Assembly: GCF_024223415.1 (NCBI RefSeq) | Contig: NZ_CP100500.1 | Length of the DNA stretch: 64,000 nt | Source: Escherichia coli | Lineage (GTDB): Bacteria; Pseudomonadota; Gammaproteobacteria; Enterobacterales; Enterobacteriaceae | Reading direction: 5' to 3' (one strand) | Part shown: in pieces, positions 4,959 to 25,822 of the stretch | Numbering within the stretch: position 1 is the stretch's first letter | Layout: every line of letters begins with the position of its first letter | Made by a program: the position numbers and the translations under genes | Notes under the pieces: generated by a model | What the model saw: the letters and a program-made list of their open reading frames with translations, nothing else | What the model was told of the DNA's origin: nothing | Database searches by the model: none

Positions 4959-5839
4959 GGATACCCCCTGATTACCGCCTGCCCTTATTCCCCGGGAGAC
5001 TGAGAACAGGCTGAGATATAAGTATATTTATATAATATTATATTTCGGATTATTCGCAGAATACTGAAAAAACCGGTCGGGTCAACCGCAGGAAAACAGA
5101 AAGAGCCTGTAATAACGCATAGAAACGATATTTAAAACCAGAACAACCATCAAAAACAGAACATAAAGTCACAAAAACCGTCAAAAACGACCAGGTACTG
5201 CATTTTTAACACCTTTTTTAAATTTTGGTATCTTTACAAAAAACACCACCTGAAAATCATTTATTTAATTAAATAAAGTAAATTGCTTAGCCTGATAAAT
5301 ATTGTTCTGCAACACTCCGGTTCAGGCAGAATGTATTTTCATGGCTTACCCATTCAGGCGTAAATGCGATATTCCGCACATGACAGAGACCACACAAAGA
5401 AAAACAGGCGCAGACAGCCGGATACAGGATAAATTAACACTTCACAATCCGGCATTATTACGCTACAACATTCACGGGCAACTGCCCTTGTAACGAAAAC
5501 TTCCTTAATTTGGGTATTTGTGTGCCGTACGTCTGTGGTGTACGGCTTTTTTTCATTTTTTTATAATTTCTATAAATAAAGATATAATCAATACGTATAT
5601 ACCGTCGTATAAGATCCTTCTTCACCTTTCATTAAAAAGATCCGGAACAAAACAGACGATGAGATTGTGGTACTACCAGATTTACACCCTTACTCCGGAT
5701 AATTCACAAATCCTGAAATTACGACCTTCCTCCCGTTGCCGGACTGAAACAATATGCAGACACTCTGACGGACATGTCAGCAATGCACTCGCTCTCTGCT
5801 GTACAGGTATTACACCATACTTCACCAGGAGGTCTGTTC

Positions 5840-7483: not shown

Positions 7484-7658
7484 AATATTTGTTGTGCCGG
7501 ATCTTTTCCGGCATGATGATGTGTGTTACAGCCTCTGGCTTATAACACTCTGCAGTAGTGCTGGCTGACGTGACTGCCGGATATTCTGGTTTTCTTAAGT
7601 CACGGATATACTGACGACAGGGTTTCACATTCAATATTCAACTGACAGGTATGTTTAT

Positions 7659-8951: not shown

Positions 8952-8992
8952 TGTTTCACCGTTATATAACGGTATCATTCAGTTTTTAAAAA

Positions 8993-9016
8993 TGGCGACA
9001 GGTTAACCTGTCGCCA
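8993..9016. terminator. GC-rich hairpin (TGGCGACAGG-TTAA-CCTGTCGCCA) after the MFS gene
   Basis: Perfect 10-bp inverted repeat; T-run lies on the minus-strand side. Confidence 0.4.
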
Positions 9017-9585
9017 TCCGGTCAGATGCTCACCAGACCGCGCCCCCCATCAGTCTCCATATCCTCCCCCTTGCCCTGCCGGATGATAGCGCCACGCGAC
9101 ATCACCAGGTAGTGGTCCGCCGTAATGTTCCGGTGAAATCGTCCTGACACGTTTCCGGGCTCGTTATCAGCGGTTTTTGCGAATGATCGCCGCCCTGCGA
9201 TGGTTGATTTATTTTATTGCGCCCCGGCGTCTGCCTTGCCAGGTACCGGAGGCGGGCTCTGAAGTACTGAGTAGGGTGAGCGCGTCAGGCCACGAAGTAC
9301 TGACACGGGAGTTTGTGGCAGGCAGTGAAGTCCTGACCAGGGTAAGGGAGGGGCTGACGTGCATGCCCTGACTGTCAGCCAGGGCGCGTGGTGACTGACT
9401 TTCTCAATAACCCGCTGTCAGGCGCTCAACGCCCGACAGCAGGCCATGGCCCGGTGTGCAAAGACCTGACGGCAGGCCTTGTGTCACCCGGATAAGGTAA
9501 ATCCCTCAAGAGGCAGCAACTCAGCCAGTCGGTCCTCAGGCCACTCCGGCAGGCGCGTCAGTACGTCCGTCAGCCAGGCATGTTG

Positions 9586-11300
9586 CAAAATCGCATCGTG
9601 TTCGATCGCCGATTCGCATCGTACTCGATCGCTGATTCGCATTGTCCGATCATTGATTCGCATCCTGCAGTCACTCCTGGAATTAACTTTTCTGCATAGT
9701 CTCTACTGCTGAATTTTCTTCTCAGTAGAGGTCTTGATGGCTAAAAAGAAAATCTCCCGGAGTTCTATGGAAACCTGTTTAAAAATTCTCCAACTTAAGT
9801 TCGAGCAGCATCAGACAAACCGGACTATCGCACTTACACTGAACATCAGTCCCTCGACTGTTTCCGATGTATTGTCCCGCTTTAAGAACACGTCAATATC
9901 GTGGCCTTTGCCTGAATCGATGACAACTCAACGTCTTGAGGTGCTTATCTTTCCTGGCAAGCAAGCCCCGGAAATGACGCCGGCACTGCCTGACTGGCTC
10001 TACATTGATACCGAACTACGTCGTGTGGGAGTCACTCGTCAGCTCTTATGGATGGAATACAAACATCAGGCTGGTGAATATGCTCTGGGATACTCACAGT
10101 TCTGTCGTCGTTATCTGCACTGGAAAAAAAGCGTGCGTTACTCCATGCGGCAGGAACATCGTGCTGGTGAAAAACTCTTTATCGACTTCTGTGGTCCTAC
10201 AGTCCCTGTTGTTAATCCGGAAACCGGAGAAGAACGCAGAGTGGCCATCTTTGTAGCCGTGATGGGAGCATCTAACTATACCTATGTTGAAGCGTGCGAA
10301 GGTCAGGATCTGATGTCGTGGCTAAACGCCAACAGCCGATGTCTGACCTTCCTTGGTGGTGTACCAAAACTGCTGATCCCGGATAACCTTAAAAGTGCTG
10401 TCAAAAAAGTCGATCGCTACGAACCGGTCATCAATGAGAGTTACCAAGCATTCGCAGAGCACTACAATACAGTGATACTCCCAGCAAGACCAAGAAAACC
10501 AAAGGATAAAGCGAAAGCCGAAACGGCTGTACTTATCGTCGAACGATGGCTGCTTGCCCGCATTCGCAACGAGACCTTCTTTACACTCAGGAGCCTGAAC
10601 AGTCGTCTACGCGAGTTGTTGGTAGAGCTGAATAACCGTCCCATGAAAGGATACGGCAACCAGACGCGTGCAGAGCGTTTTGCCCTGCTGGATGCCCCTG
10701 CATTATCAGCCCTGCCAGTATCAGAGTATGAGTTCGCTGAATACAAAACGGTGAAAGTTGCACCTGATTACCATGTTGAATACGCCCACCACTGGTACTC
10801 AGTACCTCATGAACTGATCGGACAACGGTTATCCCTGAAAGCCACTCAGACAGTGATCCAACTCTGGCATCAGGGGCAATGCGTGGCACAACATCCGCGC
10901 AGCCTCCATGAGTACAAGCACACGACCAACCCTCTACACATGCCTGCAGCACATCAGGCACACAGCAGATGGACACCGGAAAGTCTTCAGGAAGCAGCCA
11001 GAAAGATAGATCCTTATACAGCAATGACAGTGGATAGCATGCTGAACAGTAAACGTCATCCTGAACAGGCTTACCGGACAGTCCTGGGGCTGCTGAGCCT
11101 GAAAAAACACTATGGTCGTGAGCGTCTGGAAAAAGCCTGTCATGTTGCCCGGGAGTGCAGAACGTCGGAAAGAAGGTTCATCGAAAACCTTCTGCGTAAT
11201 AACAGGGAAAACCTTTCCCTCCGGAAAAAGAGAGGCAGACGGAGGGAAACGTATCAAAAATCCAGTTAATACGCGTGATGACTGCCTGCATCACGTTTTC
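9586..11300 (+). mobile_element. IS21-family element remnant (istA only; boundaries approximate)
   Basis: Tandem ~21-bp repeats at 9586-9670 upstream of istA; element truncated before istB. Confidence 0.45.
9734..11269 (+). CDS. istA: IS21-family transposase IstA (cognate istB absent)
   Basis: N-terminal HTH plus catalytic core typical of IstA; no IstB-like ORF follows. Confidence 0.8.
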   Translation: MMAKKKISRSSMETCLKILQLKFEQHQTNRTIALTLNISPSTVSDVLSRFKNTSISWPLPESMTTQRLEVLIFPGKQAPEMTPALPDWLYIDTELRRVGVTRQLLWMEYKHQAGEYALGYSQFCRRYLHWKKSVRYSMRQEHRAGEKLFIDFCGPTVPVVNPETGEERRVAIFVAVMGASNYTYVEACEGQDLMSWLNANSRCLTFLGGVPKLLIPDNLKSAVKKVDRYEPVINESYQAFAEHYNTVILPARPRKPKDKAKAETAVLIVERWLLARIRNETFFTLRSLNSRLRELLVELNNRPMKGYGNQTRAERFALLDAPALSALPVSEYEFAEYKTVKVAPDYHVEYAHHWYSVPHELIGQRLSLKATQTVIQLWHQGQCVAQHPRSLHEYKHTTNPLHMPAAHQAHSRWTPESLQEAARKIDPYTAMTVDSMLNSKRHPEQAYRTVLGLLSLKKHYGRERLEKACHVARECRTSERRFIENLLRNNRENLSLRKKRGRRRETYQKSS

Positions 11301-12506: not shown

Positions 12507-13079
12507 TTAGCGGATGATGCCGGCCATCACAGGCCAGGATAACGAAAGGCACGCGTTTCTGAATGCCCTGAGTGGCTCAGCGCCTTCAGGTGTGGCTGCA
12601 CGCACCACCCTGTAACAGCATACCACCGTACACTGCCCTTCTGGTGTGAGTGTGGTGCCGGCCTGTTGCAGTAACGCCACCAGGAGCGAATCAGCTGTTA
12701 GGCCGGATCCCGGTGGGCAAATGAGATCCTGGCTGATCAGCAACAGACAACGTATCCCGGTGCTGTCTGTCGTTTCCCGCAGCCAGCGTAACACCACCGG
12801 CAGTAACGGATATCCGGCATGGCTTCGCTGATTCAGCTGTCTGTAAAATGCCCGGTAAAACGCATGAATCTGCCCCCCGTCACGATTTCCTCCTGTTGAA
12901 TGAAGTGTGAACTGAACGGCCAGCAGACGCGGCCAGTGATCCACCGCCTGCTGAATAAAACGCCGGATTTCCACCGGCTCTGAAAGTACGGTTTCGGTTA
13001 TCTGCACGATTTGCTCTCTTTGAATGTTTCTGAACCGGTGTCGGTGCACAGGGAAACGCATACCCACACCACCACGCAT
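12507..13079 (-). CDS. YagK/YfjJ (inovirus Gp2-like) family paralogue with degenerate HUH motif
   Basis: Aligns by eye with ORF 14155-14748, but the HYHLLLL position reads IRCLLLI. Confidence 0.45.
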   Translation of the reverse strand: MRGGVGMRFPVHRHRFRNIQREQIVQITETVLSEPVEIRRFIQQAVDHWPRLLAVQFTLHSTGGNRDGGQIHAFYRAFYRQLNQRSHAGYPLLPVVLRWLRETTDSTGIRCLLLISQDLICPPGSGLTADSLLVALLQQAGTTLTPEGQCTVVCCYRVVRAATPEGAEPLRAFRNACLSLSWPVMAGIIR

Positions 13080-13125
13080 ACCCGGTCACAGCGTCACCGC
13101 CGTAAACTGCGACCGGGAACGCGCA

Positions 13126-13548
13126 TTACAGCAACGAATTGTCCGTCCCGGTATCTTCCATCAGGGGCTCCCGGCGTTCCCTGCTGTACAGCCCGCTTCC
13201 ACACCCCGGGCAGACCTTTTCTCCTTCATAGCTTTCATCACACATCACACAAAACCACCTTCTTACCTTCACCGCATAATCAGGCACCAGCATGCCCTGC
13301 AGATACACACGACGGGATTCTTTCTCTGCCGGGTCAAGCCAGGTACATCGCAGGAGAACTTTCTCAGAGACCGTCATCTGGTCATGTTCAAACCACGGTG
13401 GTTGTCCGTCCGTGCCCCGCTTAAGCGTTAACGGGCAACCACAGGACACACAGCACAAAACGTCCTGGCGGTTGTGCTCCGCAGCTTCTTTCGCGGTGAC
13501 AAAATGGCCCTTGCTGTCATTCGCCATATAGCAGTTCAGAATTCGCAT
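13126..13548 (-). CDS. Cys-rich zinc-ribbon protein, prophage-associated
   Basis: CxxC pairs and a PWFEH motif; start moved to internal ATG to remove overlap with the neighbour. Confidence 0.5.
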   Translation of the reverse strand: MRILNCYMANDSKGHFVTAKEAAEHNRQDVLCCVSCGCPLTLKRGTDGQPPWFEHDQMTVSEKVLLRCTWLDPAEKESRRVYLQGMLVPDYAVKVRRWFCVMCDESYEGEKVCPGCGSGLYSRERREPLMEDTGTDNSLL

Positions 13549-13562
13549 ATCCCCCCCTGAGC

Positions 13563-13949
13563 TTAAGCTGTCCGGGAAATACTGAAGCGCCCGGTCCGGC
13601 AGTGTGTGCAGTACTGCTCCCCATAATAATCGTGGTGACATTGTCTGCAGTGCCGGCTGGCTTTACGCACCACGGGTAAGGCATCCGGTACAAACTGCCG
13701 TAAGCGTTTAATCAGTTGCACCTCCCTGCGCTCAGGCTGTACGTAAGGACACTGCTGACCGTGCTCCGTCAGCCCTTCGTCAGTGTGTTCAAACCAGGGG
13801 CGTTCAGTGTTGTATTGCGGGTGGTATCTGAGCGCACTGCCGCAAAGGTGGCAGGTGTAGCGGTCGTAAGGTGCAGTCTGTGCGGTACGGGCACCGGTCA
13901 GACGTCCGTTGCCATCAAACGCGAGAAAAGATTTTGCGTACATCGTCAT
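13563..13949 (-). CDS. Cys-rich zinc-ribbon protein, paralogue of 13126-13548
   Basis: Shares CxxC…PWFEH with the neighbour; second CxxC cluster at the C-terminus. Confidence 0.5.
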   Translation of the reverse strand: MTMYAKSFLAFDGNGRLTGARTAQTAPYDRYTCHLCGSALRYHPQYNTERPWFEHTDEGLTEHGQQCPYVQPERREVQLIKRLRQFVPDALPVVRKASRHCRQCHHDYYGEQYCTHCRTGRFSISRTA

Positions 13950-14154
13950 ACTCCGGGGCCGCCAGACGACACGCAGGCGTCAGCCGTCCCTTTACGGGCA
14001 GCGTGGACAGAGTGTGAATGGCGGTACAGTTAAGGGTGGAAAATGGGTGGGCTGTTGTTACAGCACTGTGGGTGTCACATCATGGTGTACCAACGTAAAA
14101 AATAATCAGCAGGATGTCGCCGGACATCAGCCCGTCCTGCTGGTTTTGCCGGGC

Positions 14155-14748
14155 TCAGCCCCGACTGCAGCCGAAATTACGTTCACCGGTGCCACAGGCT
14201 TTGGTATGCTCCTTCGCCAGATAGTCAGCCCGTTCCAGTAGCTGCTGAAAGCCGGCGTCATCATCACGCGTCAGCCACAGTGCGGGATGTTCCGGAAAGG
14301 TCGCCAGCGTGGCATGGTATCCGGCATCCACACCCAGGGCACTGCACCACGCCTGTTTAATCATCCCGGCCAGTGACCCCGGAACGCGGTAATCGCCGGC
14401 ACGGCACCAGGTATCCCGGTTGACCAGCAACAGCAGGTGATAATGTTTTTTACCTTTACGCTCCCCGAACTCCCGGGCCCAGGCGTAATGCAGGGTTGTG
14501 GGATGTACGCGTTTACCTTCACGGCGCCTGCGTTTCTGGTAAGCGTAAATTCGGGCTTTCAGGGCATTGACGAAGCGGGATATCACCGCAGCATCGGTCT
14601 CTGCGGGGTGCTCCGGCAGACGCAGATCCACCTGGAGCGCTGTCAGGCGGGGATGCACCGCCAGTGCCTGCTGCACCGTCTCACGGATACGCTTCTGCCA
14701 GAAGCTGTTGTACTTGTGTATCATGGTTGAATCTCCTCCGTGACTCAC
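14155..14748 (-). CDS. YagK/YfjJ-family protein (inovirus Gp2-like, HUH-motif replication-initiator-like)
   Basis: HYHLLLL HUH-type motif; resembles CP4-type prophage YagK/YfjJ proteins. Confidence 0.65.
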   Translation of the reverse strand: MSHGGDSTMIHKYNSFWQKRIRETVQQALAVHPRLTALQVDLRLPEHPAETDAAVISRFVNALKARIYAYQKRRRREGKRVHPTTLHYAWAREFGERKGKKHYHLLLLVNRDTWCRAGDYRVPGSLAGMIKQAWCSALGVDAGYHATLATFPEHPALWLTRDDDAGFQQLLERADYLAKEHTKACGTGERNFGCSRG

Positions 14749-15167
14749 AGACGTTACTTAAGGAAGAAGATGAGCAACAGGCTACACGTACGATAAAAGA
14801 CATTTGGGTCATGAATACACGATCTGGATGGACGACATAAAGGTGATGATCTGCTCAAACCAACCAGCGTTTATGATCGATGCGACAGACAGAAGGAATG
14901 AACTACTACAATAAATAAAATCTGTCGCTGTGTGGCAAGGAAGATTTTCTTCAGGAGTGCTGGCTTATTGGGATTTTTAACACAATTTAGAGTGAGTTCA
15001 ATCAGCCACAAATCTGGATTCCTATGTCCGGATTTTTACCACAATCCCCTTATTGATTTTTATTAATCATTCACAATCTGTGATCTAGCTCGATTGCGAT
15101 TTGTATTTGACTTAATATAATCACCATGATTGTATTAAATCAAATTATAACAACAGGCGTAAAAACC

Positions 15168-16121
15168 ATGAACATTAAAAAATCAATAGAACGAGTACCC
15201 GGCGGTATGATGGTTGTACCACTGGTGATTGGCGCCATTATCAATACCTTTTCACCACAAGTGCTGGAGATCGGCGGGTTCACCACCGCGTTGTTCAAAA
15301 ACGGCGCTGCTCCTCTGATTGGTGCCTTCCTGCTCTGTATGGGAGCAGGGATCAGCGTGAAAGCCGCACCTCGGGCGTTGTTTCAGGGGGGGGCAATAAC
15401 CCTGACCAAACTGCTTGTCGCCATTGCGATTGGCCTAGGTGTTGAGCATCTGTTCGGTCAGGAAGGTATCTTCGGATTGAGCGGCGTGGCAATCATTGCG
15501 GCAATGAGTAACTCAAACGGCGGACTTTACGCGGCGCTAGTGGGAGAGTTTGGCAACGAACGCGATGTCGGCGCTATTTCAATTCTATCTCTGAATGATG
15601 GACCGTTCTTTACAATGATCGCGCTGGGAGCTGCTGGTATGGCGAACATACCAATCATAGCGCTGGTCGCAGTGCTGATTCCGCTGGTGATAGGGATGCT
15701 CCTCGGTAACCTTGATCCCAACATGCGTGACTTCCTGACCAAAGGTGGACCACTATTGATCCCGTTCTTCGCGTTTGCGCTGGGTGCGGGGATCAACCTT
15801 GAAATGCTTCTGCAGGGTGGGCTGGCTGGGATTCTGCTTGGCGTACTGACCACCTTTATCGGCGGTTTCTTTAACATTCGCGCCGACCGTCTGGCTGGGG
15901 GAACCGGTATTGCCGGCGCGGCGGCTTCCAGCACAGCCGGAAATGCGGTAGCGACGCCGCTGGCGATTGCTCAGGCAGACCCTTCGCTGGCTGAAGTGGT
16001 TACCTCTGCCGCACCGCTGATTGCCGCATCGGTGATCACAACCGCAATTCTGACGCCAGTCCTAACCTCTCGGGTCGCCAAAAATCGGGCGCGTCAGATC
16101 TCTGAGGAGAAAAAAGTATGA
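15168..16121 (+). CDS. KdgT-family permease (2-keto-3-deoxygluconate transporter-like)
   Basis: MNIKKSIERVPGGMMVVPL matches the KdgT N-terminus; polytopic membrane protein. Confidence 0.75.
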   Translation: MNIKKSIERVPGGMMVVPLVIGAIINTFSPQVLEIGGFTTALFKNGAAPLIGAFLLCMGAGISVKAAPRALFQGGAITLTKLLVAIAIGLGVEHLFGQEGIFGLSGVAIIAAMSNSNGGLYAALVGEFGNERDVGAISILSLNDGPFFTMIALGAAGMANIPIIALVAVLIPLVIGMLLGNLDPNMRDFLTKGGPLLIPFFAFALGAGINLEMLLQGGLAGILLGVLTTFIGGFFNIRADRLAGGTGIAGAAASSTAGNAVATPLAIAQADPSLAEVVTSAAPLIAASVITTAILTPVLTSRVAKNRARQISEEKKV

Positions 16122-17389
16122 AGATGATCGTTATCGCCGACGACTTTACGGGTTCTAACGATACTGGCGTGCAGTTGGCGAAGAAAGGAGCTCGCACGGA
16201 AGTTTTGCTAACGCCGGAGCAAAAGCCTTCGCGTCGCACGGATGTACTGGTGCTCAACACTGAAAGTCGTGCGGTGCCGGCCGCACAGGCAGCGAAAGCG
16301 GTAACGCATGCTCTGGCTCCCTGGTGCAAAGGAGAGATGCTCCCGCTGGTATACAAGAAAATCGACTCCACATTTCGCGGCAACGTCGGCGCGGAAGTGA
16401 CGGCAGCGATGCGAGCCGCTAAACGGACTCTGGCAGTGATCGCTGCGGCGATCCCAGCTGCAGGACGCACAACCCGTAACGGATTATGCCTGGTCAACGG
16501 TACGCCTCTACTGGAAACCGAGTTTGCCAGCGATCCGAAAACGCCGGTTTTCTCCTCGCGCATTGCGGAACTGATCGCGCTACAAAGCGATATCCCGGTA
16601 CATGACGTGTCGCTTGATGACGTGCGACGCGGACAGCTCAGCGCCCTTCTTAAAGCTTTTGCAGCCCAGGGGGAATGCATGGTGGTAGTCGATGCGGTGG
16701 AAGATCACGACCTGTCTCTGATTACCCAGGCTATTTGTGAACAGGCTACATTTCCTCTACTGGTCGGTGCGGCAGGACTGGCGAATGCGCTACCGGTCAG
16801 AATGTTCATGCAGGAGAAGAAGGCTCTGCCAGTGCTAGTAGTTGCAGGATCGATGAGCGAAGCCACCCGGCGGCAGGTTGAAAAAGCGCTCACCCAGGCA
16901 CACGCCAACGTGGTGGACATTGATGTCTCACGACTGATTTCCTCGAAGGCCGAACAGGAAATAGCCTCTGTGGTGGAACAGGCCAGCGTGTTGCTCAGTC
17001 ACCAGAAACACACGATTCTTCGCACCAGCCGTAGTGCGGATGACCGACTGATGATCGATGCTCTGTGTACTGAAGCAGGCGTAGGCCGCCAACAGCTTGG
17101 CGAGATGCTCAGCCAATGTCTAGGGATCATTACACTGCGCATTATCGAACAGGCGCGTATTGGCGGCCTGTTCCTGACCGGAGGAGATATTGCCACTGCT
17201 GTTGCCAGTGCGCTTGGTGCTGAAGGCTATCGCATCCAGAACGAGGTCGCCCCATGCATTCCCTGCGGGATGTTTGTGAACAGCGAAATCGACGATCTTC
17301 CGGTGATCACGAAAGCTGGCGGATTCGGTTCAGACAGCACCCTTTGTGATGCACTTTATTTTATTGAGGAGATGTACAGTGGTAACTAA
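16118..17389 (+). CDS. Four-carbon acid sugar kinase, DUF1537 family (OtnK/DtnK-like)
   Basis: MKMIVIADDFTGSNDTG N-terminus typical of the family; overlaps the KdgT stop. Confidence 0.75.
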   Translation: MKMIVIADDFTGSNDTGVQLAKKGARTEVLLTPEQKPSRRTDVLVLNTESRAVPAAQAAKAVTHALAPWCKGEMLPLVYKKIDSTFRGNVGAEVTAAMRAAKRTLAVIAAAIPAAGRTTRNGLCLVNGTPLLETEFASDPKTPVFSSRIAELIALQSDIPVHDVSLDDVRRGQLSALLKAFAAQGECMVVVDAVEDHDLSLITQAICEQATFPLLVGAAGLANALPVRMFMQEKKALPVLVVAGSMSEATRRQVEKALTQAHANVVDIDVSRLISSKAEQEIASVVEQASVLLSHQKHTILRTSRSADDRLMIDALCTEAGVGRQQLGEMLSQCLGIITLRIIEQARIGGLFLTGGDIATAVASALGAEGYRIQNEVAPCIPCGMFVNSEIDDLPVITKAGGFGSDSTLCDALYFIEEMYSGN

Positions 17390-18362
17390 AACAATAGCGA
17401 TTACGATGGGCGATCCGGCAGGTATCGGTCCAGAAATAATTGTCAAGGCACTTTGTGAAAATGAACTTAGCGGCGCACCGCTGGTAGTGGTGGGATGCCT
17501 ACAGACCCTACAACGTTTGCAAACCAAAGGACTGGCAGAAGGAGTGACTTTTCGCGCAATTGACAATGTCACGCAGGCGCGATTTTCACAGGGCGTGATT
17601 CACGTAATCGATGAGCCGCTGGCACAGCCCCAAGCGCTGGAGCCAGGTAAAGTGCAGGCCGAGGCGGGAGATCTGGCCTACCGTTGCGTAAAACGTGCGA
17701 CGGAGTTGGCACTGAAAGGTGATGTACACGCCATCGCCACTGCGCCGCTGAATAAAGAAGCACTACATCAGGCGGGACATTATTATCCGGGACATACCGA
17801 ACTGCTGGCGACGTTGACCGGAAGCCGTGACTATGCGATGGTGCTTTACACCGACAAGCTGAAGGTGATTCACGTTTCGACCCATATTGCGTTACGCAAG
17901 TTTCTCGACACTCTCAACAGGCAACGCGTGGAGACTGTTATAGGCATCGCGGATCACTTCCTTAAGCGTATTGGCTTAGCCCAACCGCGCATCGCCGTAG
18001 CCGGGATCAATCCCCATGCAGGCGAAAACGGTCTGTTTGGCGATGAAGAAATTCGCATTGTATCGCCAGCCATTGAAAACATGAGGGCGAAAGGAACAGA
18101 CGTTTTCGGACCATGTCCACCGGATACCGTGTTTTTGCAGGCATACGAGGGTCATTATGACATGGTGGTGGCGATGTACCACGATCAGGGACATATTCCG
18201 CTCAAACTGCTTGGATTCTATGATGGCGTGAATATCACCGCCGGTCTGCCGTTTATTCGTACCTCTGCTGATCACGGGACTGCGTTTGATATTGCCTGGA
18301 CGGGCAAAGCAAAATCTGAGAGCATGGTCATATCGATTAAACTGGCAATGCAACTGGCATAA
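17379..18362 (+). CDS. PdxA-family NAD-dependent dehydrogenase (PdxA2-like 4-phospho-hydroxy-acid dehydrogenase)
   Basis: IAITMGDPAGIGPE plus MYHDQGH/ADHGTAFD motifs; GTG start overlapping the kinase stop. Confidence 0.75.
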   Translation: MVTKTIAITMGDPAGIGPEIIVKALCENELSGAPLVVVGCLQTLQRLQTKGLAEGVTFRAIDNVTQARFSQGVIHVIDEPLAQPQALEPGKVQAEAGDLAYRCVKRATELALKGDVHAIATAPLNKEALHQAGHYYPGHTELLATLTGSRDYAMVLYTDKLKVIHVSTHIALRKFLDTLNRQRVETVIGIADHFLKRIGLAQPRIAVAGINPHAGENGLFGDEEIRIVSPAIENMRAKGTDVFGPCPPDTVFLQAYEGHYDMVVAMYHDQGHIPLKLLGFYDGVNITAGLPFIRTSADHGTAFDIAWTGKAKSESMVISIKLAMQLA

Positions 18363-18371
18363 TTTCCTGTT

Positions 18372-19142
18372 ATGAAAGGACAACACCGTCTGGATAAAAT
18401 AGTGGCGTATTTGAAAAATCATACGCTGGCGACCGTGGAACAACTTGTAGATGTGGTAGAAGCATCGCCCGCGACGATCCGACGTGATCTGATCAAACTG
18501 AATAAACAGGGTGTGATCAGCCGCAGCCACGGAGGTGTTGCCCTGCGGCGTTTTGAACCCGCGCAACCCACAACCAATGAAAAGCAATTACGATCGCCTG
18601 CGGAAAAGCGGGCGATCGCGCGTTTTGCAGCCTCAATAGTACAGGCCGGCGACGCAGTGGTTTTGGACGCCGGCACCACCATGCTGGAGTTGGCTAAATG
18701 CCTGACTCATTTGCCACTCAGGGTGATCACGGTCGATCTGCATATCGCCCTGTTTTTGTCCGAATTTCCCCAGATTGAAGTCACCATTGTGGGTGGTCGT
18801 ATTGATGAAAGCAGTCAGTCCTGTATCGGCGACTTTGGTCGCAAAATGTTACGTAGCGTCTACCCTGATATCGCATTCATGAGCTGTAACACCTGGAGTA
18901 TGGAAAAAGGTGTCACAACTCCGACGGAGGACAAAGCAGGACTCAAGCAGGAGATTATCGCTAACGCCCAACGTAAGGTTCTACTGGCCGACAGCAGCAA
19001 ATATGGCGCGCATTCGCTGTTCAACGTAACGCCGCTGAGCAGTTTTACCGATGTTGTGACCGATGTGCATCTGCCACGCCCTGTCCAGGCAGAGCTGGAA
19101 GCCCACTCCATTGCCCTTACGCTAGTCCAGCCTGGATTTTAA
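18372..19142 (+). CDS. DeoR-family transcriptional regulator
   Basis: N-terminal HTH ([22 protein letters not shown]) with DeoR-type C-terminal domain. Confidence 0.8.
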
Positions 19143-19429
19143 AGGGACCGTTCACAGTTATCAGGACGGACGGCATGTTGCGCCAACAGTCTTACCTGTG
19201 AACTGTATAGTGAACGTCTTTATGCTTATGGCAGTAAATCCACCAGTTGCAAACATCCCCCGCTGACCGGGGGAAAGTATTCATGTACCTGTTGTTGATT
19301 TACTGATGTCCATATCGGACATTCAGCATGATACGCGTTGTCATCCGGAACACGACTCTCTGTCGTATAAATATACCCCCGGATGAACGCTGTTTCGGAT
19401 GTGCGTACCTGGGGGCCTCAGGTGACAGC

Positions 19430-20464
19430 TCAGACGGTGGTCATATCAATAACGATTCTGCCGTTGATTTTTCCTGCGCGCATGCGGCCGAATACAGAGT
19501 TGATATTTTCCAGTGGCTCCGTGGTGACCTCTGCATGAACCTTGTGCTGACCGGTAAAGAAGAGAGCTTCCTGCAAATCCTTACGGGTCCCTACAATAGA
19601 ACCCCTCACAGTTATACCATCAAGCACCATATCGAATATCGACAAATCAAATTTCCCCGGCGGCAGACCGTTCAGTACCATCGTTCCGCCACGACGCATC
19701 ATACCTGTGGCCTGAGAAAATGCGGCTGGTGACACTGCCGTGACCAGTACACCATGTGCACCACCAGTTTCTGCATGAATGCGCTGTACCGGATTTTCAC
19801 GCACGGCGTTCACCACAACAGAGGCTCCAAGTCTGCAGGCCAGCTCCAGTTTACTGTCATCCACATCAACAGCCGCAACATTCATCCCCATCGCGGCGGC
19901 ATACTGAACGGCCAGATGTCCCAGTCCTCCGACACCGGAAATCACCACCCATTCCCCCGGGCGGGCTTCCGTCATTTTCAGTCCTTTGTAAACAGTCACG
20001 CCGGCGCAAAGCACGGGGGCTATATGGTGAAAATCAACATTATCCGGAAGAAGTCCGACATAATTCGCATCCGCAAGACAGTATTCCGCAAACGTGCCAT
20101 TCACCGAATAACCAGCATTTTGTTGGGAATGACACAGGGTTTCCCAGCCCCCCAGGCAATGCTCACAGTAGCCGCATGCAGAATACAGCCAGGGAACCCC
20201 TACCCGATCGCCTTCCCTGATATGTTTTACGCCGGCACCCACGGCCACCACGTGACCTACCCCTTCATGTCCCGGAATAAACGGCGGACGTGGTTTGACT
20301 GGCCAGTCACCATCTGCAGCATGAAGATCGGTATGGCATACCCCCGTGGCTGCTATTCTGACCAGAATTTTTCCGGGTTCAATGGCCGGCACGGTAACTT
20401 CATCAATAACCAGCGGTTTTCCAAATTCTGTGACAATAGCGGCTTTCATGGTTTTGAGTTGCAT
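19430..20464 (-). CDS. Zinc-dependent alcohol dehydrogenase (AdhP-like)
   Basis: GVCHTDLH and GHEGVG zinc-binding motifs, GLGGLG NAD-binding motif. Confidence 0.85.
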
Positions 20465-20494
20465 TTTTGATTCCTCTGTTAGCGAAAGACAAAA

Positions 20495-22015
20495 TCAGAA
20501 CAGACCAGCCGGTGATGTGTCATAACTGACCAGAATATTTTTAACCTGCTGATAGTGGCTGAGAGCCAGCTTATGTGTTTCCCTGCCAATACCAGAATTT
20601 TTATACCCTCCGAATGCGGCATGTGCCGGGTAATAATGGTAACAGTTTGTCCATATACGCCCGGCCTGGATCCCTTTTCCCATTCTCCATGCCCGGTTTA
20701 TATCTGTCGTCCACACACCCGCGCCAAGTCCGTATTCCGTATCGTTGGCGATACTGAGCGCCTCTTCTTCTGTCCTGAACGTGGTTATGCCAATGACAGG
20801 TCCGAAGATTTCCTCCCTGAAACATCGCATCTGATTATGGCCTTTGATCAGGGTCGGCTGAATGTAGAAGCCATTCTGTAAATGTCCCTCGTGGATGACA
20901 GGTGCACCACCGGTGAGTATTTCTCCGCCCTCATCCCTTGCTATGCGGATCCAGGAAAGGATCCTGTCATACTGTTCCCGGGAAGCCTGTGCACCTATCA
21001 TTGTGTCTGTATCAAACGGATCTCCACGGCGGATATTTTCGATTTTATGCAGAACCCGCTCCACAAAAGCCTGAAAGATCGTTTCCTGAACCAGGATACG
21101 TGAGGGACAGGTACAGACCTCCCCCTGATTAAAGAAGCCAAGTACAGCACCTTCAACCGCCTTTTCAAGGTAGCTGTCATCTCCGTTCATCACATCGTCA
21201 AAGAAAATATTGGGGGATTTACCGCCCAGTTCGACTGTACTGGGGATAATATTTTCAGCTGCGCAGGAGAGAATATGCCGCCCGACGGGCGTGGAGCCTG
21301 TGAATGCAATTTTATCGATACGACGGCTGCGGGCCAGAGCTTCACCAGCTTCCTGCCCGAAACCATGAACAACGTTAAGCACACCCGGCGGTAAAAGATC
21401 ACCGATTAATTCCAGCAGTACGCAAATACCCAGAGGGGTCTGTTCTGCGGGCTTCAGTACCACACAGTTTCCTGCCGCAAGTGCCGGTGCCAGTTTCCAG
21501 GCCGCCATCAGCAAAGGAAAATTCCATGGAATAATCTGACCGACCACTCCCACAGGTTCATAGATGTGCCATGCCATCATATCCCTGCCCACCTCTGCTG
21601 CACTGCCTTCCTGCGCCCGGAGACAGCCCGCAAAATAACGGAAGTGGTCAACTGCCAGTGGAATATCGGCCGCGAGTGTTTCGCGTACCGGCTTGCCGTT
21701 ATCCCAGGTTTCTGTCAGTGCCAGGATTTCTGTGTTCGCTTCAATACGATCGGCAATGGCAAGCAGTATATTCGCCCGCTCCGTGACCGGTGTTGCCCCC
21801 CATCGGGCTCTGGCCTCATGTGCCGCAGTGAGCGCGCTTTCAATATCCATCTCACCCGAACGTGGGAATTCAGCAATATTTTCTCCGGTAACAGGAGTGG
21901 TGCTGGTGAACCATCGCCCGCCGACAGGATCAACAAACTGACCGTTGATAAAGTTACCGTAGCGTTTTTTGAATGACACTTTTGAGCCGGGTAATCCCGG
22001 ATGTATGTATTTCAT
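20495..22015 (-). CDS. NAD-dependent aldehyde dehydrogenase (AldB-like)
   Basis: Collinear by eye with E. coli AldB; ELGGKSP and catalytic Cys context GEVCTCPSR. Confidence 0.9.
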   Translation of the reverse strand: MKYIHPGLPGSKVSFKKRYGNFINGQFVDPVGGRWFTSTTPVTGENIAEFPRSGEMDIESALTAAHEARARWGATPVTERANILLAIADRIEANTEILALTETWDNGKPVRETLAADIPLAVDHFRYFAGCLRAQEGSAAEVGRDMMAWHIYEPVGVVGQIIPWNFPLLMAAWKLAPALAAGNCVVLKPAEQTPLGICVLLELIGDLLPPGVLNVVHGFGQEAGEALARSRRIDKIAFTGSTPVGRHILSCAAENIIPSTVELGGKSPNIFFDDVMNGDDSYLEKAVEGAVLGFFNQGEVCTCPSRILVQETIFQAFVERVLHKIENIRRGDPFDTDTMIGAQASREQYDRILSWIRIARDEGGEILTGGAPVIHEGHLQNGFYIQPTLIKGHNQMRCFREEIFGPVIGITTFRTEEEALSIANDTEYGLGAGVWTTDINRAWRMGKGIQAGRIWTNCYHYYPAHAAFGGYKNSGIGRETHKLALSHYQQVKNILVSYDTSPAGLF

Positions 22016-22081
22016 GACATTCTCCCTGAGCGAAATTCAGTGTACGTTCATGCAGGAACAAAACTGTTGCAGATAACCTTA

Positions 22082-22098
22082 AGCAACACCCATGCCAC
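22082..22098 (-). promoter_or_regulatory. Candidate sigma-54 (-24/-12) promoter for the aldehyde/alcohol dehydrogenase operon
   Basis: Minus strand reads TGGCAT-N5-TTGCT with GG…GC spacing as in the TGGCAC-N5-TTGCW consensus, about 70 bp upstream of the ALDH start. Confidence 0.5.
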
Positions 22099-22256
22099 CA
22101 AGTTGTTACACACAGTTAACAACAACAAAAACAGCCTGTTAGCCCAAAAAACAGACAACCGAAAAAGAATCACCACAGGAAAATGTGAAGCAAATAAAAC
22201 ATTTTCGATACACAAATGATACAATCATGCAACACAACTGTTGCAAGGATTGAATT

Positions 22257-24017
22257 ATGTTACGTAAGAGATCTGCAACTGAGTATCAGAAAGAAAAAGC
22301 CACGCTTCCGGTACTCCTGAGTGCATCATGGCAACGATGTACCGGCTATCATCTCGAAAGAGACAGTGCGCCCTCAGTATGTGTTGAGCATGACCAGTTA
22401 CGGGATCTCCGGTCGCACAACGGCTGGTCAGATATCCTTAAACAACAGTTCCCTGAATCAGGCTCTGATTTTTTCAGTAAATCACTGGTACTGGTTATTG
22501 CTGATGCATCAGGCGTGATCCTTGACACCTGCGGTAACAGGAAATTTCTGAATAAAGCCGAAGGTTTTTTCCTTTCCCCCGGTCATATCTGGACCGAACA
22601 ACACTACGGCACAAATGCCATAGGTACAGCGCTGGCTGTACAGCAGGCATGTGAAGTGAGGGGGAGTGAACACTGGCTCAACAGAAATTCAGGACTCTGT
22701 TGTTCGGCATACCCGCTATTTTCACCTGAAGGTTATCTTGCCGGTATCCTGGATTTATCGTCACCGGCAGATTTACCATTCCGTGATGCACCGGTGATTA
22801 TCAGGCGGTTTGTTCAGCAAACCGAATATCTCTGGACAACAAAACGACTCAATGCAGAGAGATATCTGTTGCATCTCCGCCGGGAAAACAACGCAGACAT
22901 CAGTGACAGTAGTGAATTTTTACTGGTCATTGAAGGTGATGTGATTGTTGGTGCCAACAGGCTCGCTGTGAATGAATTTGGCCTTCTTCCACCTTATGAT
23001 TCCGTCACTCTGGATACTCTCTTTACCGGGGGTAACAGACAGTCTGATTTTCTGGAATCGTGCAGCGGACAACGTTATCTGCAGCGACGCACCCGCCCCC
23101 ACAGAGCTGCCGTGAATCTGTCACCCCGCCTCCGTTTTCCATCGCGGCGTGAAGCGGACAACGAAAAAAAGGAAAAAGCACAGCAGTTAATCAACCACGG
23201 AATATCGGTCTGTATTACAGGAGAAACCGGAACGGGGAAAGAATATCTGGCGCGGGAGCTTCACCGTAACAGTTGCCGGAAAAACGGCAACTTTGTTGCA
23301 ATTAACTGTGCTGCCCTGCCGGAACACCTGACAGAATCAGAGCTTTTCGGATACGCTCCGGGAGCATTTACCGGCGCGAATTCCAGAGGTTATCCCGGGA
23401 AAATCAGGGAAGCCAGTGGCGGGATCCTGTATCTTGATGAAATCGGCGATATGCCGGCAACACTTCAGACACGGTTATTACGTGTACTGCAGGACAAAAA
23501 AGTGATTCCTCTGGGTTCAAACACGCCTGTGGACGTTGACTTCGTACTGATATCAGCCACGCACCGTGATCTGGATAAGATGTGTGCAGAAGGGACTTTT
23601 CGGGATGATCTGTTATACCGAATACGGGAATTTCACCTGCATCTTCAGCCACTTCGGGAAAGAAGCGACCTGGGTAAACTGATAGTTAAACTCTGGGAAG
23701 AATCTGAACAGGAGATGAAAAAAACCGTCATGCTGGGCAGTGAAATTATTGAAGATTTAAAACGACATTCATGGCCGGGGAATGTACGTCAGTTGCTGAA
23801 TGTGCTCAGAGTTCTGATGGCGCTGGCACGACCTGGAGGAAGAATCACTCCAGGTGATCTCAGCGTAGTGTCTGAAGATATTTGTCATATCCATAATACC
23901 GTAAAGATAGTGACCGAAAGAAAAATAGTGGATGAGGCCGGAGGAAACATCAGCAGAGCGGCAAAAATGCTGGGTATTTCCCGAAGCACATTATACAGAC
24001 GACTGAAAAGTCTGTAA
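22257..24017 (+). CDS. Sigma-54-dependent transcriptional activator (AcoR-like)
   Basis: AAA+ Walker A GETGTGKE, GAFTGA signature, C-terminal HTH; divergent from the ALDH operon. Confidence 0.85.
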   Translation: MLRKRSATEYQKEKATLPVLLSASWQRCTGYHLERDSAPSVCVEHDQLRDLRSHNGWSDILKQQFPESGSDFFSKSLVLVIADASGVILDTCGNRKFLNKAEGFFLSPGHIWTEQHYGTNAIGTALAVQQACEVRGSEHWLNRNSGLCCSAYPLFSPEGYLAGILDLSSPADLPFRDAPVIIRRFVQQTEYLWTTKRLNAERYLLHLRRENNADISDSSEFLLVIEGDVIVGANRLAVNEFGLLPPYDSVTLDTLFTGGNRQSDFLESCSGQRYLQRRTRPHRAAVNLSPRLRFPSRREADNEKKEKAQQLINHGISVCITGETGTGKEYLARELHRNSCRKNGNFVAINCAALPEHLTESELFGYAPGAFTGANSRGYPGKIREASGGILYLDEIGDMPATLQTRLLRVLQDKKVIPLGSNTPVDVDFVLISATHRDLDKMCAEGTFRDDLLYRIREFHLHLQPLRERSDLGKLIVKLWEESEQEMKKTVMLGSEIIEDLKRHSWPGNVRQLLNVLRVLMALARPGGRITPGDLSVVSEDICHIHNTVKIVTERKIVDEAGGNISRAAKMLGISRSTLYRRLKSL

Positions 24018-24337
24018 GAACAACGTGCTGCCGGATACGTTATTTGCGGGAAATTCCTGTTCTGTAAAATATATCTCAGGTTGTTAAAACCCTGTCATTC
24101 TTCCATGTGAACAGTATGAGAAACATCACACGGGTATATTCACGGCCGGCACAACCACAGACATAAATGATATCCTGCGCATCATTTCCTGATGCTCTGA
24201 TACTGAGTTAACCACTTATTTACATCTGACGATAAATTGTTTATTCATTCTTCAGGGTAAATAAAGCCATAAGGAGTGTGATATTCACGATACGCTGAAA
24301 ATCGGTGAACTGAAAAATGGCAGTTACAGGGGGAAAT

Positions 24338-25822
24338 ATGAGTGATTTAATTAATTTTATTAATGGCATAATATGGAGCCCGGCACTGGTCTGGCTTTGT
24401 CTTGGAACAGGCCTCTGGTTTTCTGTCAGGGGACGCTTCCTGCAGCTCCGGCATATTAAAGAAATGCGCCGTCTGATATTCCGGAGTAAACAGAATGATG
24501 CGGGCGTTTCCTCTTTTCAGGCACTCACGATGACACTGGCCGGACGGGTCGGAACCGGTAATATTGCCGGTGTTGCCACGGCTATCACCTTTGGTGGTCC
24601 CGGTGCATTATTCTGGATGTGGGTGGTGGCATTTCTCGGCGCAAGCTCAGCCTTTGTCGAATCCACACTGGGGCAAATTTATAAGGAAAAAATTAACGGA
24701 GAATACCGGGGCGGACCCGCTTTTTACATAGAAAAAGGGCTTGGGTTACGATGGTACGCATGGCTGTTTGCTGTGGTGACGGTGCTTTCCTGTGGGCTGT
24801 TATTACCCGGTGTCCAGGCGAATTCGATAGGAAGCAGCCTGAACCTTGCATTCGGGATTAGCCCCAATGTGACGGCAGCATTTATCGCCCTCCTTCTTGG
24901 ATTCATCATCTTTGGTGGTGTAAAACGGATTGCTGTATTTACCAGTACTGTCGTGCCTTTCATGGCTCTCGGCTATATCATTGTCGCGTGTGTCATTGTT
25001 GCACTTCATATTGAAAAACTTCCCGGCGTGCTCCTCCTTGTCTGGCGCTCTGCTTTTGGACTGGATGCAGGTTTTGGTGCCATTGTCGGGCTTGCCATTT
25101 CATGGGGGGTCAAACGTGGTGTCTATTCCAATGAAGCCGCTCAGGGAACCGGACCTCACGCCTCTTCCGCTGCGGCAGTGACACATCCGGTTAAACAGGG
25201 ACTGGTGCAGGCCTTTTCTGTATATATCGACACGCTTTTTGTCTGTTCAGCTACGGGATTTATGCTTCTTGTTACCGGTCTGTATAATGTTCAGGGCCCC
25301 GGTGATGTTGCCTTATATACCGGTATCGCCGGTGTGGCAGCCGGGCCCGGCTATGTGCAGACAGCCATGGAAAGTATGATGCCGGGGTTTGGTAATTATT
25401 TTGTCGCAATCGCACTGTTCTTTTTCGCATTCACCACGATTGTTGCTTACTATTATATCGCAGAAACTAACATTGCCTGGATTTGCCGTAAAACAGCACG
25501 CCCCTGGCTTATGATTGTACTGAAGATTATGCTGATGGTTTCTGCGGTATACGGTACGGTCAAAACCGCAGATATGGCATGGGGACTGGGTGATATAGGG
25601 GTTGGTATGATGGCATGGCTTAATATCATCGCTATATTGCTTATGGGAGGGACTGCGTTTAATTGCCTCAGGGACTACGAAAAACAGATGTCACAGAATG
25701 CTGACCCGGTATTTGATCCCGAACGCCTCAGTCTGCAAAATGCTGATTACTGGACAGAACACCGTGATGAAGTTAAAAAATTGAGTGAGCCCGGGCCCAC
25801 ATTCCGGACAACGTCGTCGTAA
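24338..25822 (+). CDS. Alanine/glycine:cation symporter (AGCS family)
   Basis: Collinear with YaaJ-type carriers from MSDLINFINGIIW. Confidence 0.85.
   Translation: MSDLINFINGIIWSPALVWLCLGTGLWFSVRGRFLQLRHIKEMRRLIFRSKQNDAGVSSFQALTMTLAGRVGTGNIAGVATAITFGGPGALFWMWVVAFLGASSAFVESTLGQIYKEKINGEYRGGPAFYIEKGLGLRWYAWLFAVVTVLSCGLLLPGVQANSIGSSLNLAFGISPNVTAAFIALLLGFIIFGGVKRIAVFTSTVVPFMALGYIIVACVIVALHIEKLPGVLLLVWRSAFGLDAGFGAIVGLAISWGVKRGVYSNEAAQGTGPHASSAAAVTHPVKQGLVQAFSVYIDTLFVCSATGFMLLVTGLYNVQGPGDVALYTGIAGVAAGPGYVQTAMESMMPGFGNYFVAIALFFFAFTTIVAYYYIAETNIAWICRKTARPWLMIVLKIMLMVSAVYGTVKTADMAWGLGDIGVGMMAWLNIIAILLMGGTAFNCLRDYEKQMSQNADPVFDPERLSLQNADYWTEHRDEVKKLSEPGPTFRTTSS

Follow-up and report, generated by a model that had tools for sequence, protein, structure and literature searches.

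The 64-kb window analysed here, a single stretch of 64,000 nucleotides from E. coli, carries an intact copy of a known four-gene D-threonate operon. Such operons are already known and this one is ordinary in itself; its sole unusual feature is that it is carried on an E. coli genomic island, apparently after leaving a Citrobacter-like chromosome. We are confident in reading kdgT-dtnK-pdxA2-deoR as an operon for D-threonate catabolism and as the orthologue of Salmonella STM0161–STM0164, and we further infer what its permease carries, how it is repressed, through which operator and by which inducer it is controlled, and that it is expressed in this E. coli. A check of the open reading frames found four intact genes, all on the plus strand, between 15168 and 19142 (Table 1). 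The first-pass annotation had described a KdgT-like permease, a DUF1537 kinase, a PdxA-family dehydrogenase and a DeoR regulator in this order, with the permease and the regulator flanking the enzyme pair, as a four-carbon acid sugar utilisation locus. The Pfam and NCBIfam matches agree with these identities, both flanking genes are present on the same strand, and the D-threonate enzyme models together with synteny with Salmonella support the proposed role. In the profile search the family matches of the four products had E-values of 1e-83 to 1e-199, which rules out chance.

Table 1. Features of the D-threonate cassette, its control region and its borders, in window positions
Feature	Position	Strand	Size or make-up	Basis or remark
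Decayed 3′ remnant of yacL (UPF0231)	14806–14986	+		Left end of the C. sedlakii-like block
Candidate operator O1	15054–15069	.	TGATTTTTATTAATCA	Perfect palindrome
Weak CRP-like site	15079–15094	.	TGTGA tctagc TCGAT	Centred at about −41.5 relative to the guessed transcription start
Predicted sigma-70 promoter	15094–15121	+	−35 TTGCGA, 16-nt spacer, −10 TATAAT (15116–15121)	
Candidate operator O2	15108–15123	.	TGACTTAATATAATCA	
Candidate operator O3	15127–15142	.	TGATTGTATTAAATCA	
KdgT-family permease	15168–16121	+	317 aa	Pfam KdgT PF03812
dtnK, DUF1537-family D-threonate kinase	16118–17389	+	423 aa	NCBIfam NF047819, Pfam SBD_N + NBD_C
pdxA2, D-threonate 4-phosphate dehydrogenase	17379–18362	+	327 aa, GTG start	NCBIfam NF002891, Pfam PdxA
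DeoR/GlpR-family regulator	18372–19142	+	256 aa	Pfam HTH_DeoR + DeoRC
Possible weak terminator	19146–19221	+	Long imperfect hairpin, then CUUUAUGCUUAU	RNA fold of 19130–19300, z-score only −1.65

Read from the sequence, the permease and kinase genes share a 4-nt overlap (ATGA) with GAGGAG upstream, the kinase and pdxA2 genes overlap by 11 nt with GAGGAG 6 nt ahead of the GTG, and a 9-nt gap separates pdxA2 from deoR. The kinase and dehydrogenase had been called translationally coupled; the overlap is real, and coupling is what this overlap suggests. The mechanical ORF start of pdxA2 at 17346 was rejected because the GTG at 17379 is used in the gene calls of other contigs and is conserved in three genera.

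The kinase matched the NCBIfam D-threonate kinase model (NF047819) with 653.9 bits against a cut-off of 450, the match taking in residues 1–421 of the 422-position model, and Salmonella DtnK scored 663.4 bits against the same model. It has the two-domain DUF1537 architecture (SBD_N PF07005, 218 bits; NBD_C PF17042, 135 bits), its N-terminal ADDFTG and C-terminal TKAGGFG align with PDB 4XFM, and it is identical to P0135 and one residue off WP_097054251.1, 'D-threonate kinase [Escherichia coli]', the name that public databases already give to this exact protein. Salmonella DtnK shares 77.1% of its residues and the C. sedlakii protein 90.8%, and the gene stands next to a PdxA2-type dehydrogenase in a context syntenic with the Salmonella cassette. 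An OtnK (3-oxo-tetronate kinase) type was considered and set aside, as the score against that model was 170.6 bits, under the cut-off of 350, and no isomerase or decarboxylase genes adjoin. ATP-dependent phosphorylation of D-threonate, ahead of other tetronates, is the predicted activity of this protein, and DtnK has been characterised as a DUF1537 D-threonate kinase (PMC10971088).

The same pathway logic could in principle serve D-erythronate or another four-carbon acid sugar, through a DenK-type kinase and a 4-phospho-D-erythronate dehydrogenase. KEGG lists dtnK as D-threonate kinase and pdxA2 as 4-phospho-D-threonate 3-dehydrogenase, and it also groups dtnK with denK and has pdxA2 act on both 4-phospho-D-threonate and 4-phospho-D-erythronate (PMC13185595), so the two-enzyme architecture alone cannot separate the two sugars. 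The kinase also shares only 77% of its residues with its Salmonella counterpart. We nevertheless consider a substrate other than D-threonate very unlikely, given that the kinase scores 200 bits above the D-threonate kinase cut-off, much as its Salmonella orthologue does, that the cassette is gene-for-gene syntenic with Salmonella, and that among PDB entries the runner-up falls far below the top match of the kinase, 4XFM (134 vs 323 bits).

For the dehydrogenase, the D-threonate 4-phosphate dehydrogenase model (NF002891) gave 661.7 bits with a cut-off of 583, the next-best model being the generic pdxA model TIGR00557 (382 bits, also passed), and Pfam PdxA gave 353.5 bits. The protein is 85% identical across 325 residues to PDB 2HI1 ('4-hydroxythreonine-4-phosphate dehydrogenase 2'), which we take to be Salmonella PdxA2, has the same NPHAGENG, YHDQGH and TSADHGTAFD stretches, and matches PDB 6E85 ('D-threonate 4-phosphate dehydrogenase') with 549 bits. 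Its predicted reaction is the NAD-dependent oxidative decarboxylation of 4-phospho-D-threonate to dihydroxyacetone phosphate (DHAP) (PMC10079672). The Salmonella STM0162 and STM0163 products are reportedly the enzymes assayed by Zhang et al. in PNAS in 2016, where PdxA2 is said to yield DHAP and CO2.

Passing TIGR00557 would also suit a pair that works mainly in vitamin B6 metabolism or detoxification, with the kinase acting on toxic 4-hydroxy-L-threonine and PdxA2 replacing PdxA on the way to PLP. STM0162 phosphorylates 4-hydroxy-L-threonine according to a passage in PMC10971088 that cites Thiaville et al. 2016, the PdxA reaction is catalysed by PdxA2 (PMC9997740), and Salmonella PLP auxotrophs were made by deleting both pdxA and STM0163 (PMC5951976). 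However, E. coli retains its own pdxA, and every genus examined has the two genes in one operon with a permease gene and a gene for a DeoR repressor of the sugar-acid type, which is the logic of a catabolic operon. We hold a main role in B6 metabolism to be very unlikely.

With D-threonate as the substrate, the KdgT-family permease would bring in the acid, DtnK would use ATP to turn it into 4-phospho-D-threonate, and PdxA2 would oxidise and decarboxylate this to DHAP and CO2, the DHAP passing into glycolysis. A D-threonate kinase and a 4-phospho-D-threonate dehydrogenase are known to take D-threonate to DHAP (PMC10079672). The first-pass annotation had pointed to the missing isomerase and decarboxylase and called the substrate uncertain. 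No isomerase or class II aldolase/decarboxylase gene was found in the cassette neighbourhood, nor were LtnD, OtnI or OtnC genes found near the cassette, but the kinase-first route needs DtnK and PdxA2 only, with neither an isomerase nor a separate decarboxylase. Both belong to the dehydrogenase-first LtnD/OtnI/OtnK/OtnC route (PMC12540250), so their absence leaves the substrate no less certain. Since both enzymes pass D-threonate equivalog models and the locus is syntenic with Salmonella, D-threonate is a well-supported substrate, with less doubt than the first-pass annotation allowed.

The permease is a member of the Pfam KdgT family (PF03812, 408.8 bits) but was rejected as a 2-keto-3-deoxygluconate transporter equivalog (TIGR00793, 281 bits, under the 453.8 cut-off), which is consistent with a substrate other than 2-keto-3-deoxygluconate. 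Its C. sedlakii orthologue is 93.1% identical and its Salmonella orthologue 91.8%, with a dN/dS of 0.10. Translation probably does not begin at the in-frame ATG further upstream, at 15126, as this codon is out of frame in Salmonella and the Pfam match opens at residue 3 of the 317-aa form. From its context and from the distant R. eutropha KdgT, we infer that the permease imports D-threonate: a KdgT permease was shown to import D-threonate into E. coli, and growth on D-threonate was seen only for E. coli also expressing it (PMC10079672). The same KdgT/kinase/dehydrogenase triad of Cupriavidus necator (R. eutropha) H16 is sufficient for E. coli growth on D-threonate (PMC10079672), but this is a distant betaproteobacterium.

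The regulator gene stands last in the cassette in every genus examined, and its product has an N-terminal HTH_DeoR domain (PF08220, 59.4 bits) and a C-terminal DeoRC sensor domain (PF00455, 164 bits). Its top NCBIfam match is YgbI (NF040890), and at 169.7 bits, far under the cut-off of 400, it is not YgbI. In Salmonella, STM0162, STM0163 and STM0164 shift together in a microarray (PMC3139621). We expect the DeoR-family protein to be the repressor of the operon, most likely acting on a single upstream promoter, where it would bind three TGATT-N6-AATCA palindromes, two of them over the −10 box and transcription start, and from which D-threonate or its 4-phosphate would release it.

A consensus scan of 14700–19500 ranked the predicted promoter as the top promoter-like site (10/12 matches); its −10 TATAAT is invariant in all seven genera aligned, and the −35 hexamer is poorly conserved. 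O2 and O3 together make up a 41-bp hyphenated palindrome (15105–15145; 19-nt arms, 89% complementarity, 3-nt spacer) over the −10 box and the likely transcription start, and this is the most conserved non-coding block in the seven-genus alignment, which includes Cedecea, where the cassette is at another chromosomal site. O1, whose centre lies 54 bp upstream of that of O2, is identical in five of the seven genera, with one mismatch in Atlantibacter and no site in Cedecea; the whole window has just two perfect matches to TGATT-N6-AATCA, and O1 is one of them. Three palindromic sites fall inside 90 bp where ~0.005 would be expected by chance, and they likely form the operator. The weak CRP-like site, poorly conserved on the whole, with a largely conserved left half (TGTGA) and a poor right half across genera, could be a CRP site. 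No plus-strand intrinsic terminator was found in the consensus scan of 14700–19500; the long hairpin directly past the regulator stop codon, across the right-hand junction of the imported block, is possibly a weak terminator.

Gene order, lengths and junctions are the same in Salmonella, C. sedlakii, K. michiganensis, Atlantibacter and Cedecea, and yacL and speD flank the cassette in Salmonella, Citrobacter, Klebsiella and Atlantibacter. At the Raoultella locus the permease and kinase are called at the same site, and no genes are called where pdxA2 and deoR are expected. A genome-neighbourhood comparison, which the first-pass annotation had proposed as a check, found the cassette syntenic with the Salmonella enterica locus holding DtnK (Q8ZRS5) and PdxA2 (P58718). 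STM0161–STM0164 match it gene by gene in order and length (317/423/327/255–256 aa), with the same 4-nt and 11-nt overlaps, 9-nt gap and GTG start for pdxA2, the promoter and palindrome block is conserved, and both enzymes pass the same equivalog models with near-equal scores. The two cassettes differ in sequence (77–92% protein identity) and in location, the Salmonella one being core chromosome at yacL-speD whereas the one here has been transplanted into an E. coli island with a decayed yacL fragment. The closest relative found outside E. coli is the chromosomal cassette of C. sedlakii (GCA_027270435.1), with 91–94% protein identity, which differs in being flanked by intact yacL and speD.

The E. 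coli ygbI-ygbJKLMN system (LtnD/OtnK/OtnC/OtnI) likewise has a DUF1537-family kinase and a DeoR-family repressor, handles four-carbon acid sugars and ends in DHAP (PMC12540250; PMC12506659), but its dehydrogenase-first route depends on an isomerase and on a decarboxylase of the class II aldolase type. The E. coli nagE-glnS locus (GR6 of strain BEN2908) holds a 'dtnK'/dehydrogenase/DeoR trio in the same order that passes the same NCBIfam models, but it is of another lineage, its kinase being only 41% and its DNA ~71% identical to the cassette here, and it has no KdgT permease and adjoins sialidase-family, DHDPS-family, Fe-ADH and SLC13 permease genes (PMC12928451). Complete E. coli genomes commonly carry this locus, whereas our cassette was absent from the complete RefSeq E. 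coli genomes (5,426 searched).

The block that holds the cassette is foreign to E. coli; neither this nor the E. coli host was recognised in the first-pass annotation. It extends over 4.4 kb (14806–19182) with 89.1% identity to C. sedlakii over 4,384 nt; the C. sedlakii homology stops at 19182, and homology to E. coli NCTC9699 begins at 19220. The yacL remnant aligns to nucleotides 177–358 of the 363-nt C. sedlakii yacL (79.8% identity, 3 gaps), its translation gives YacL peptides across two frames with stop codons, and in a distant search in E. coli its only match was the annotated yacL, at 69%. We read the remnant as a leftover of the cassette's original chromosomal position. A dS of ~0.3–0.4 relative to C. 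sedlakii rules this species out as the donor and points to a lineage that is either unsampled or older.

The cassette sits in an integrase-bearing island, bordered by mobile-element genes (IS transposase, Rpn nuclease, YagK/YfjJ) and, at its opposite end, by an adhP/aldehyde dehydrogenase/sigma-54 regulator module. The mobile-element surroundings, the decay of the co-transferred yacL fragment, a permease gene broken into 92-aa and 211-aa pieces in one E. coli assembly (L013) and the absence from complete genomes would all fit silent or decaying cargo of a mosaic island that has lost its function. We rate this very unlikely, as each of the four genes keeps its full length and a conserved start, dN/dS against C. 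sedlakii is ~0.10, and the promoter and operator block is intact. Several E. coli assemblies that are independent of one another also carry the cassette at 99.8–99.98% identity, and 533 blocks of the genome collection contain the exact kinase sequence. Taking the cassette as a working D-threonate operon, we lean slightly towards a recent lineage-specific gain that would open D-threonate, a compound K-12 cannot import, to some E. coli as a growth substrate. The integrase-bearing island next to clpA would have taken the operon up from between yacL and speD in a Citrobacter-like chromosome, and the DeoR-family repressor would control it through a three-site TGATT-N6-AATCA operator that has not been described so far.

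Beyond annotation these results are of little importance: they assign the four genes to a defined substrate and route, from D-threonate to DHAP, and correct the view of the locus as incomplete for want of isomerase and decarboxylase genes. They also document the transfer of a catabolic cassette from the Citrobacter/Salmonella core chromosome to an E. coli island, where a yacL scar points back to the source site. The regulon could be defined with the help of the predicted operator. Strains with the cassette could be recognised by it as a lineage, or could gain a small niche advantage from it wherever D-threonate is available.

The first-pass annotation had placed a four-carbon acid sugar utilisation locus at 15168-19142, and its coordinates and gene description proved correct, with the ORF listing, the Pfam domains and the junctions read from the sequence all in agreement. 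Four co-directional ORFs fill the interval (see table). The permease stop and kinase start overlap as ATGA with GAGGAG upstream, the dehydrogenase GTG lies 11 nt within the kinase gene and 6 nt past a GAGGAG, and 9 nt separate the pdxA2 stop from the regulator start. A mechanical ORF call starting the dehydrogenase at 17346 was rejected in favour of the GTG, since gene calls in other contigs give 327 aa and the GTG start is kept in three genera. Likewise, a 331-aa permease from an in-frame ATG at 15126 was rejected because in Salmonella the equivalent ATG lies in another frame and the 317-aa form already aligns with Pfam KdgT from its residue 3 onwards. None of the four genes has internal stops, and dN/dS against orthologues is ~0.10 for each; these are intact genes that evolve under purifying selection.

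Features of the window discussed in the text (window positions)
Feature	Coordinates	Strand	Description
IS21/Mu-like transposase ORF	9734-11269		At the first breakpoint
Run of small island genes	12507-14748	-	Includes a YagK/YfjJ (REP_ORF2-G2P-like) protein
Block homologous to C. sedlakii	14806-19182
TGATT-N6-AATCA, third copy	15054		Perfect
Sigma-70-like site	15094-15121		Predicted; TTGCGA-16-TATAAT
Hyphenated palindrome	15105-15145		41 bp; TGATT-N6-AATCA copies at 15108 and 15127
Permease (kdgT-like)	15168-16121	+	Pfam KdgT, 408.8 bits
Kinase (dtnK)	16118-17389	+	Pfam SBD_N and NBD_C, formerly joined as DUF1537
Dehydrogenase (pdxA2)	17379-18362	+	GTG start; Pfam PdxA, 353.5 bits
Regulator (deoR-type)	18372-19142	+	Pfam HTH_DeoR and DeoRC
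Terminator candidate	19146-19221		Weak, long imperfect hairpin
adhP/aldehyde dehydrogenase module	19430-25822
Primase-polymerase/helicase protein	27604-29955	-	783 aa
Integrase-domain gene	37123-38325
CRISPR-DR4 (type I-F) repeats	38604-38692	-	Two, 50.1 bits each, 61 nt start to start
clpA	38904-41195
Second mobile element	43091-51919		Between the clpA side and macB

Against the NCBIfam models, the kinase scored 653.9 bits with NF047819 (D-threonate kinase, cut-off 450) and only 170.6 bits with the 3-oxo-tetronate kinase model (cut-off 350), while the dehydrogenase reached 661.7 bits with NF002891 (D-threonate 4-phosphate dehydrogenase, cut-off 583), far over every biosynthetic PdxA model. 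The permease fell under the equivalog cut-off for the 2-keto-3-deoxygluconate (KDG) transporter (281 vs 453.8), which marks it as a KdgT-family paralogue rather than a KDG transporter. The regulator's top match, YgbI, was far under its cut-off (169.7 bits against 400), so that it classifies as a generic DeoR/GlpR-family member. In the PDB, 2HI1 ('4-hydroxythreonine-4-phosphate dehydrogenase 2'), which we take to be Salmonella Typhimurium PdxA2, shares 85% identity with the dehydrogenase, and 6E85 ('D-threonate 4-phosphate dehydrogenase') scores 549 bits against it. The closest relative of the kinase there is 4XFM (323 bits), with the remaining DUF1537 structures at 134 bits or less. A literature search by the codes 4XFM, 4XGJ, 4XFR, 5DMH and 3DQQ yielded no relevant paper, and the organism and substrate of these structures were left out of the evidence. 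The kinase sequence is identical to P0135 and one residue off WP_097054251.1, already named 'D-threonate kinase [Escherichia coli]' in public databases; the public annotation of the locus is already correct.

The neighbourhood comparison with characterised clusters that the first-pass annotation had proposed was run, and the Salmonella cassette matches in genes, lengths and junctions: the same four genes (317/423/327/255 aa), joined in the same way, lie between acnB-yacL and speD-speE. Citrobacter sedlakii, Klebsiella michiganensis and Atlantibacter share the Salmonella arrangement, and Cedecea has it at a different chromosomal site. At the same site in Raoultella, gene calls exist for the permease and kinase but not at the expected pdxA2 and deoR positions. 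Protein identity to Salmonella is 92% for the permease, 77% for the kinase and 84% for both the dehydrogenase and the regulator, and all four proteins are 91-94% identical to those of C. sedlakii. Salmonella DtnK (Q8ZRS5) and PdxA2 (P58718) served as reference proteins in a recent E. coli genome paper (PMC12928451). Between nagE and glnS, many complete E. coli genomes have a different kinase/dehydrogenase/DeoR trio; unlike the cassette here, it lacks a KdgT permease, and its kinase shares just 41% identity with that of the window. In E. coli 21AR0173 (locus L007, 6612-9589), PGAP also names this trio dtnK, D-threonate 4-phosphate dehydrogenase and DeoR, and it adjoins sialidase-family, DHDPS-family, Fe-ADH and SLC13 permease genes. 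The true substrate of that trio may not be D-threonate, although it passed the equivalog model.

The LtnD/OtnI/OtnK/OtnC route starts with the dehydrogenase and requires both an isomerase and a decarboxylase of the aldolase type (PMC12540250). The D-threonate route starts with the kinase, and in a growth assay E. coli grew on D-threonate only with the KdgT permease plus D-threonate kinase and dehydrogenase (PMC10079672). The first-pass annotation had rightly seen that neither an isomerase nor a decarboxylase is encoded here, but the doubt over the substrate that it drew from this absence does not hold, since the kinase-first route needs neither; judged by gene content, the cassette thus holds the whole known D-threonate pathway plus a regulator. 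A residual uncertainty is that D-erythronate is the substrate instead. DtnK and DenK are characterised DUF1537 kinases for D-threonate and D-erythronate, respectively (PMC10971088), and KEGG lists pdxA2 as 4-phospho-D-threonate/4-phospho-D-erythronate 3-dehydrogenase (PMC13185595). The equivalog scores and Salmonella orthology favour D-threonate. The original reading as a four-carbon acid sugar utilisation locus is supported. The Salmonella pair is reported to moonlight in phosphorylating 4-hydroxy-L-threonine and standing in for PdxA (PMC10971088, PMC9997740, PMC5951976), but the neighbouring permease and repressor genes suggest that this B6-type role is a side activity. On sequence grounds, the locus is an already characterised D-threonate catabolic operon, with the enzymology taken by secondary citation.

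The top sigma-70-like site of the region is overlapped by a palindrome that spans its predicted -10 box and the probable start site (predicted near 15128) and consists of two TGATT-N6-AATCA copies, with a third copy further upstream. Only seven such sites with at most one mismatch occur in the 64-kb window; three of them, including both perfect ones, fall in this 90-bp promoter stretch. In an upstream alignment of seven genera, the palindrome block and TATAAT form the most conserved non-coding sequence, and this is true even of Cedecea, where the cassette is at another location. We propose that the DeoR-family protein would bind these candidate operators as a repressor, and that it would also repress its own gene because this gene closes the operon. 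A TGTGA half-site, with its centre ~41.5 bp ahead of the guessed start and a poor right half, could be a weak CRP site. STM0162, STM0163 and STM0164 of the Salmonella cassette shift together in a microarray (PMC3139621), which is consistent with one transcript. A consensus scan of the plus strand found no intrinsic terminator after deoR, and the sole candidate is a weak hairpin.

The window ends match E. coli chromosomes at 98.8-100%, by which the window is E. coli DNA. A widespread E. coli locus was rejected, as megablast found cassette matches in 0 of 5,426 complete E. coli genomes; a more distant search in E. coli returned only the unrelated nagE-glnS locus and housekeeping pdxA. Plasmid origin was rejected as well, the only plasmid match being a 72% partial one to pdxA2 and deoR on a Pantoea megaplasmid. 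The cassette-bearing block is collinear with C. sedlakii at 89.1% identity (blastn), and its first 180 nt are the decayed 3′ half of yacL, with frameshifts and stops. This remnant covers yacL positions 177-358 of 363 and is 79.8% identical to C. sedlakii yacL and only 69% to E. coli's own. Given the remnant and the collinearity, the block apparently originated between yacL and speD on a Citrobacter-like chromosome; a dS of 0.3-0.4 shows that C. sedlakii itself was not the donor. A search of both block ends for repeats, direct or inverted, as a sign of transposition or integration gave no more than a chance-level 9-mer, and the junctions carry no flanking repeats. Other E. coli assemblies carry the island segment at 99.8-99.98% identity, so the cassette is lineage-restricted and not strain-unique, and exactly this kinase sequence is found in 533 indexed blocks of the collection. 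Carriers of the cassette include GCA_974490245.1, GCA_044068535.1 and GCA_053151435.1. One such assembly (L013, GCA_958331505.1) has the permease called as 92- and 211-aa pieces (9050-10004) in an otherwise identical cassette, and the permease is likely inactivated in that strain.

To the left of the block are YagK/YfjJ, two DUF7828 zinc-ribbon genes, an Rpn nuclease and an IS transposase. The two tandem DUF7828 proteins overlap by ~80 nt in the ORF listing, and the same run encodes a 190-aa protein with no Pfam match (UCP030791 in precomputed annotations). An extra IS3 insertion lies near 11190 in other strains. To the right, from 19220, is a module of adhP, aldehyde dehydrogenase, a sigma-54 regulator (MimR_N/AcoR-like) and a Na:alanine symporter. 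E. coli NCTC9699 has this module at 99.3% without the D-threonate cassette, its symporter interrupted by IS1. A functional link between cassette and module was rejected because of this genome and the homology breakpoints between the two.

Flanks 1-9742 and 44000-64000, ~35 kb apart in the window, are separated by ~250 kb in complete genomes, for instance TUM9803 and GF60; the island region thus has a strongly mosaic make-up across strains. The primase-polymerase (N-terminal)/helicase (C-terminal) protein is annotated in matching E. coli genomes as 'TOTE conflict system archaeo-eukaryotic primase domain-containing protein', next to YfjI and YagK/YfjJ genes. It is a candidate for a defence gene and shares the island with the cassette. 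The CRISPR-DR4 pair forms a one-spacer orphan mini-array between the integrase-domain gene and clpA, with no cas genes seen nearby. The second mobile element holds a FinO/ProQ-like protein, a P4-family primase and an Icd-like protein, has a tyrosine recombinase annotated in matching genomes, and looks like a P4-like satellite. No tRNA genes were found in the whole window.

What this analysis adds is modest: a horizontal origin with a yacL scar, the lack of the cassette in complete E. coli genomes, and a three-site operator as a prediction.
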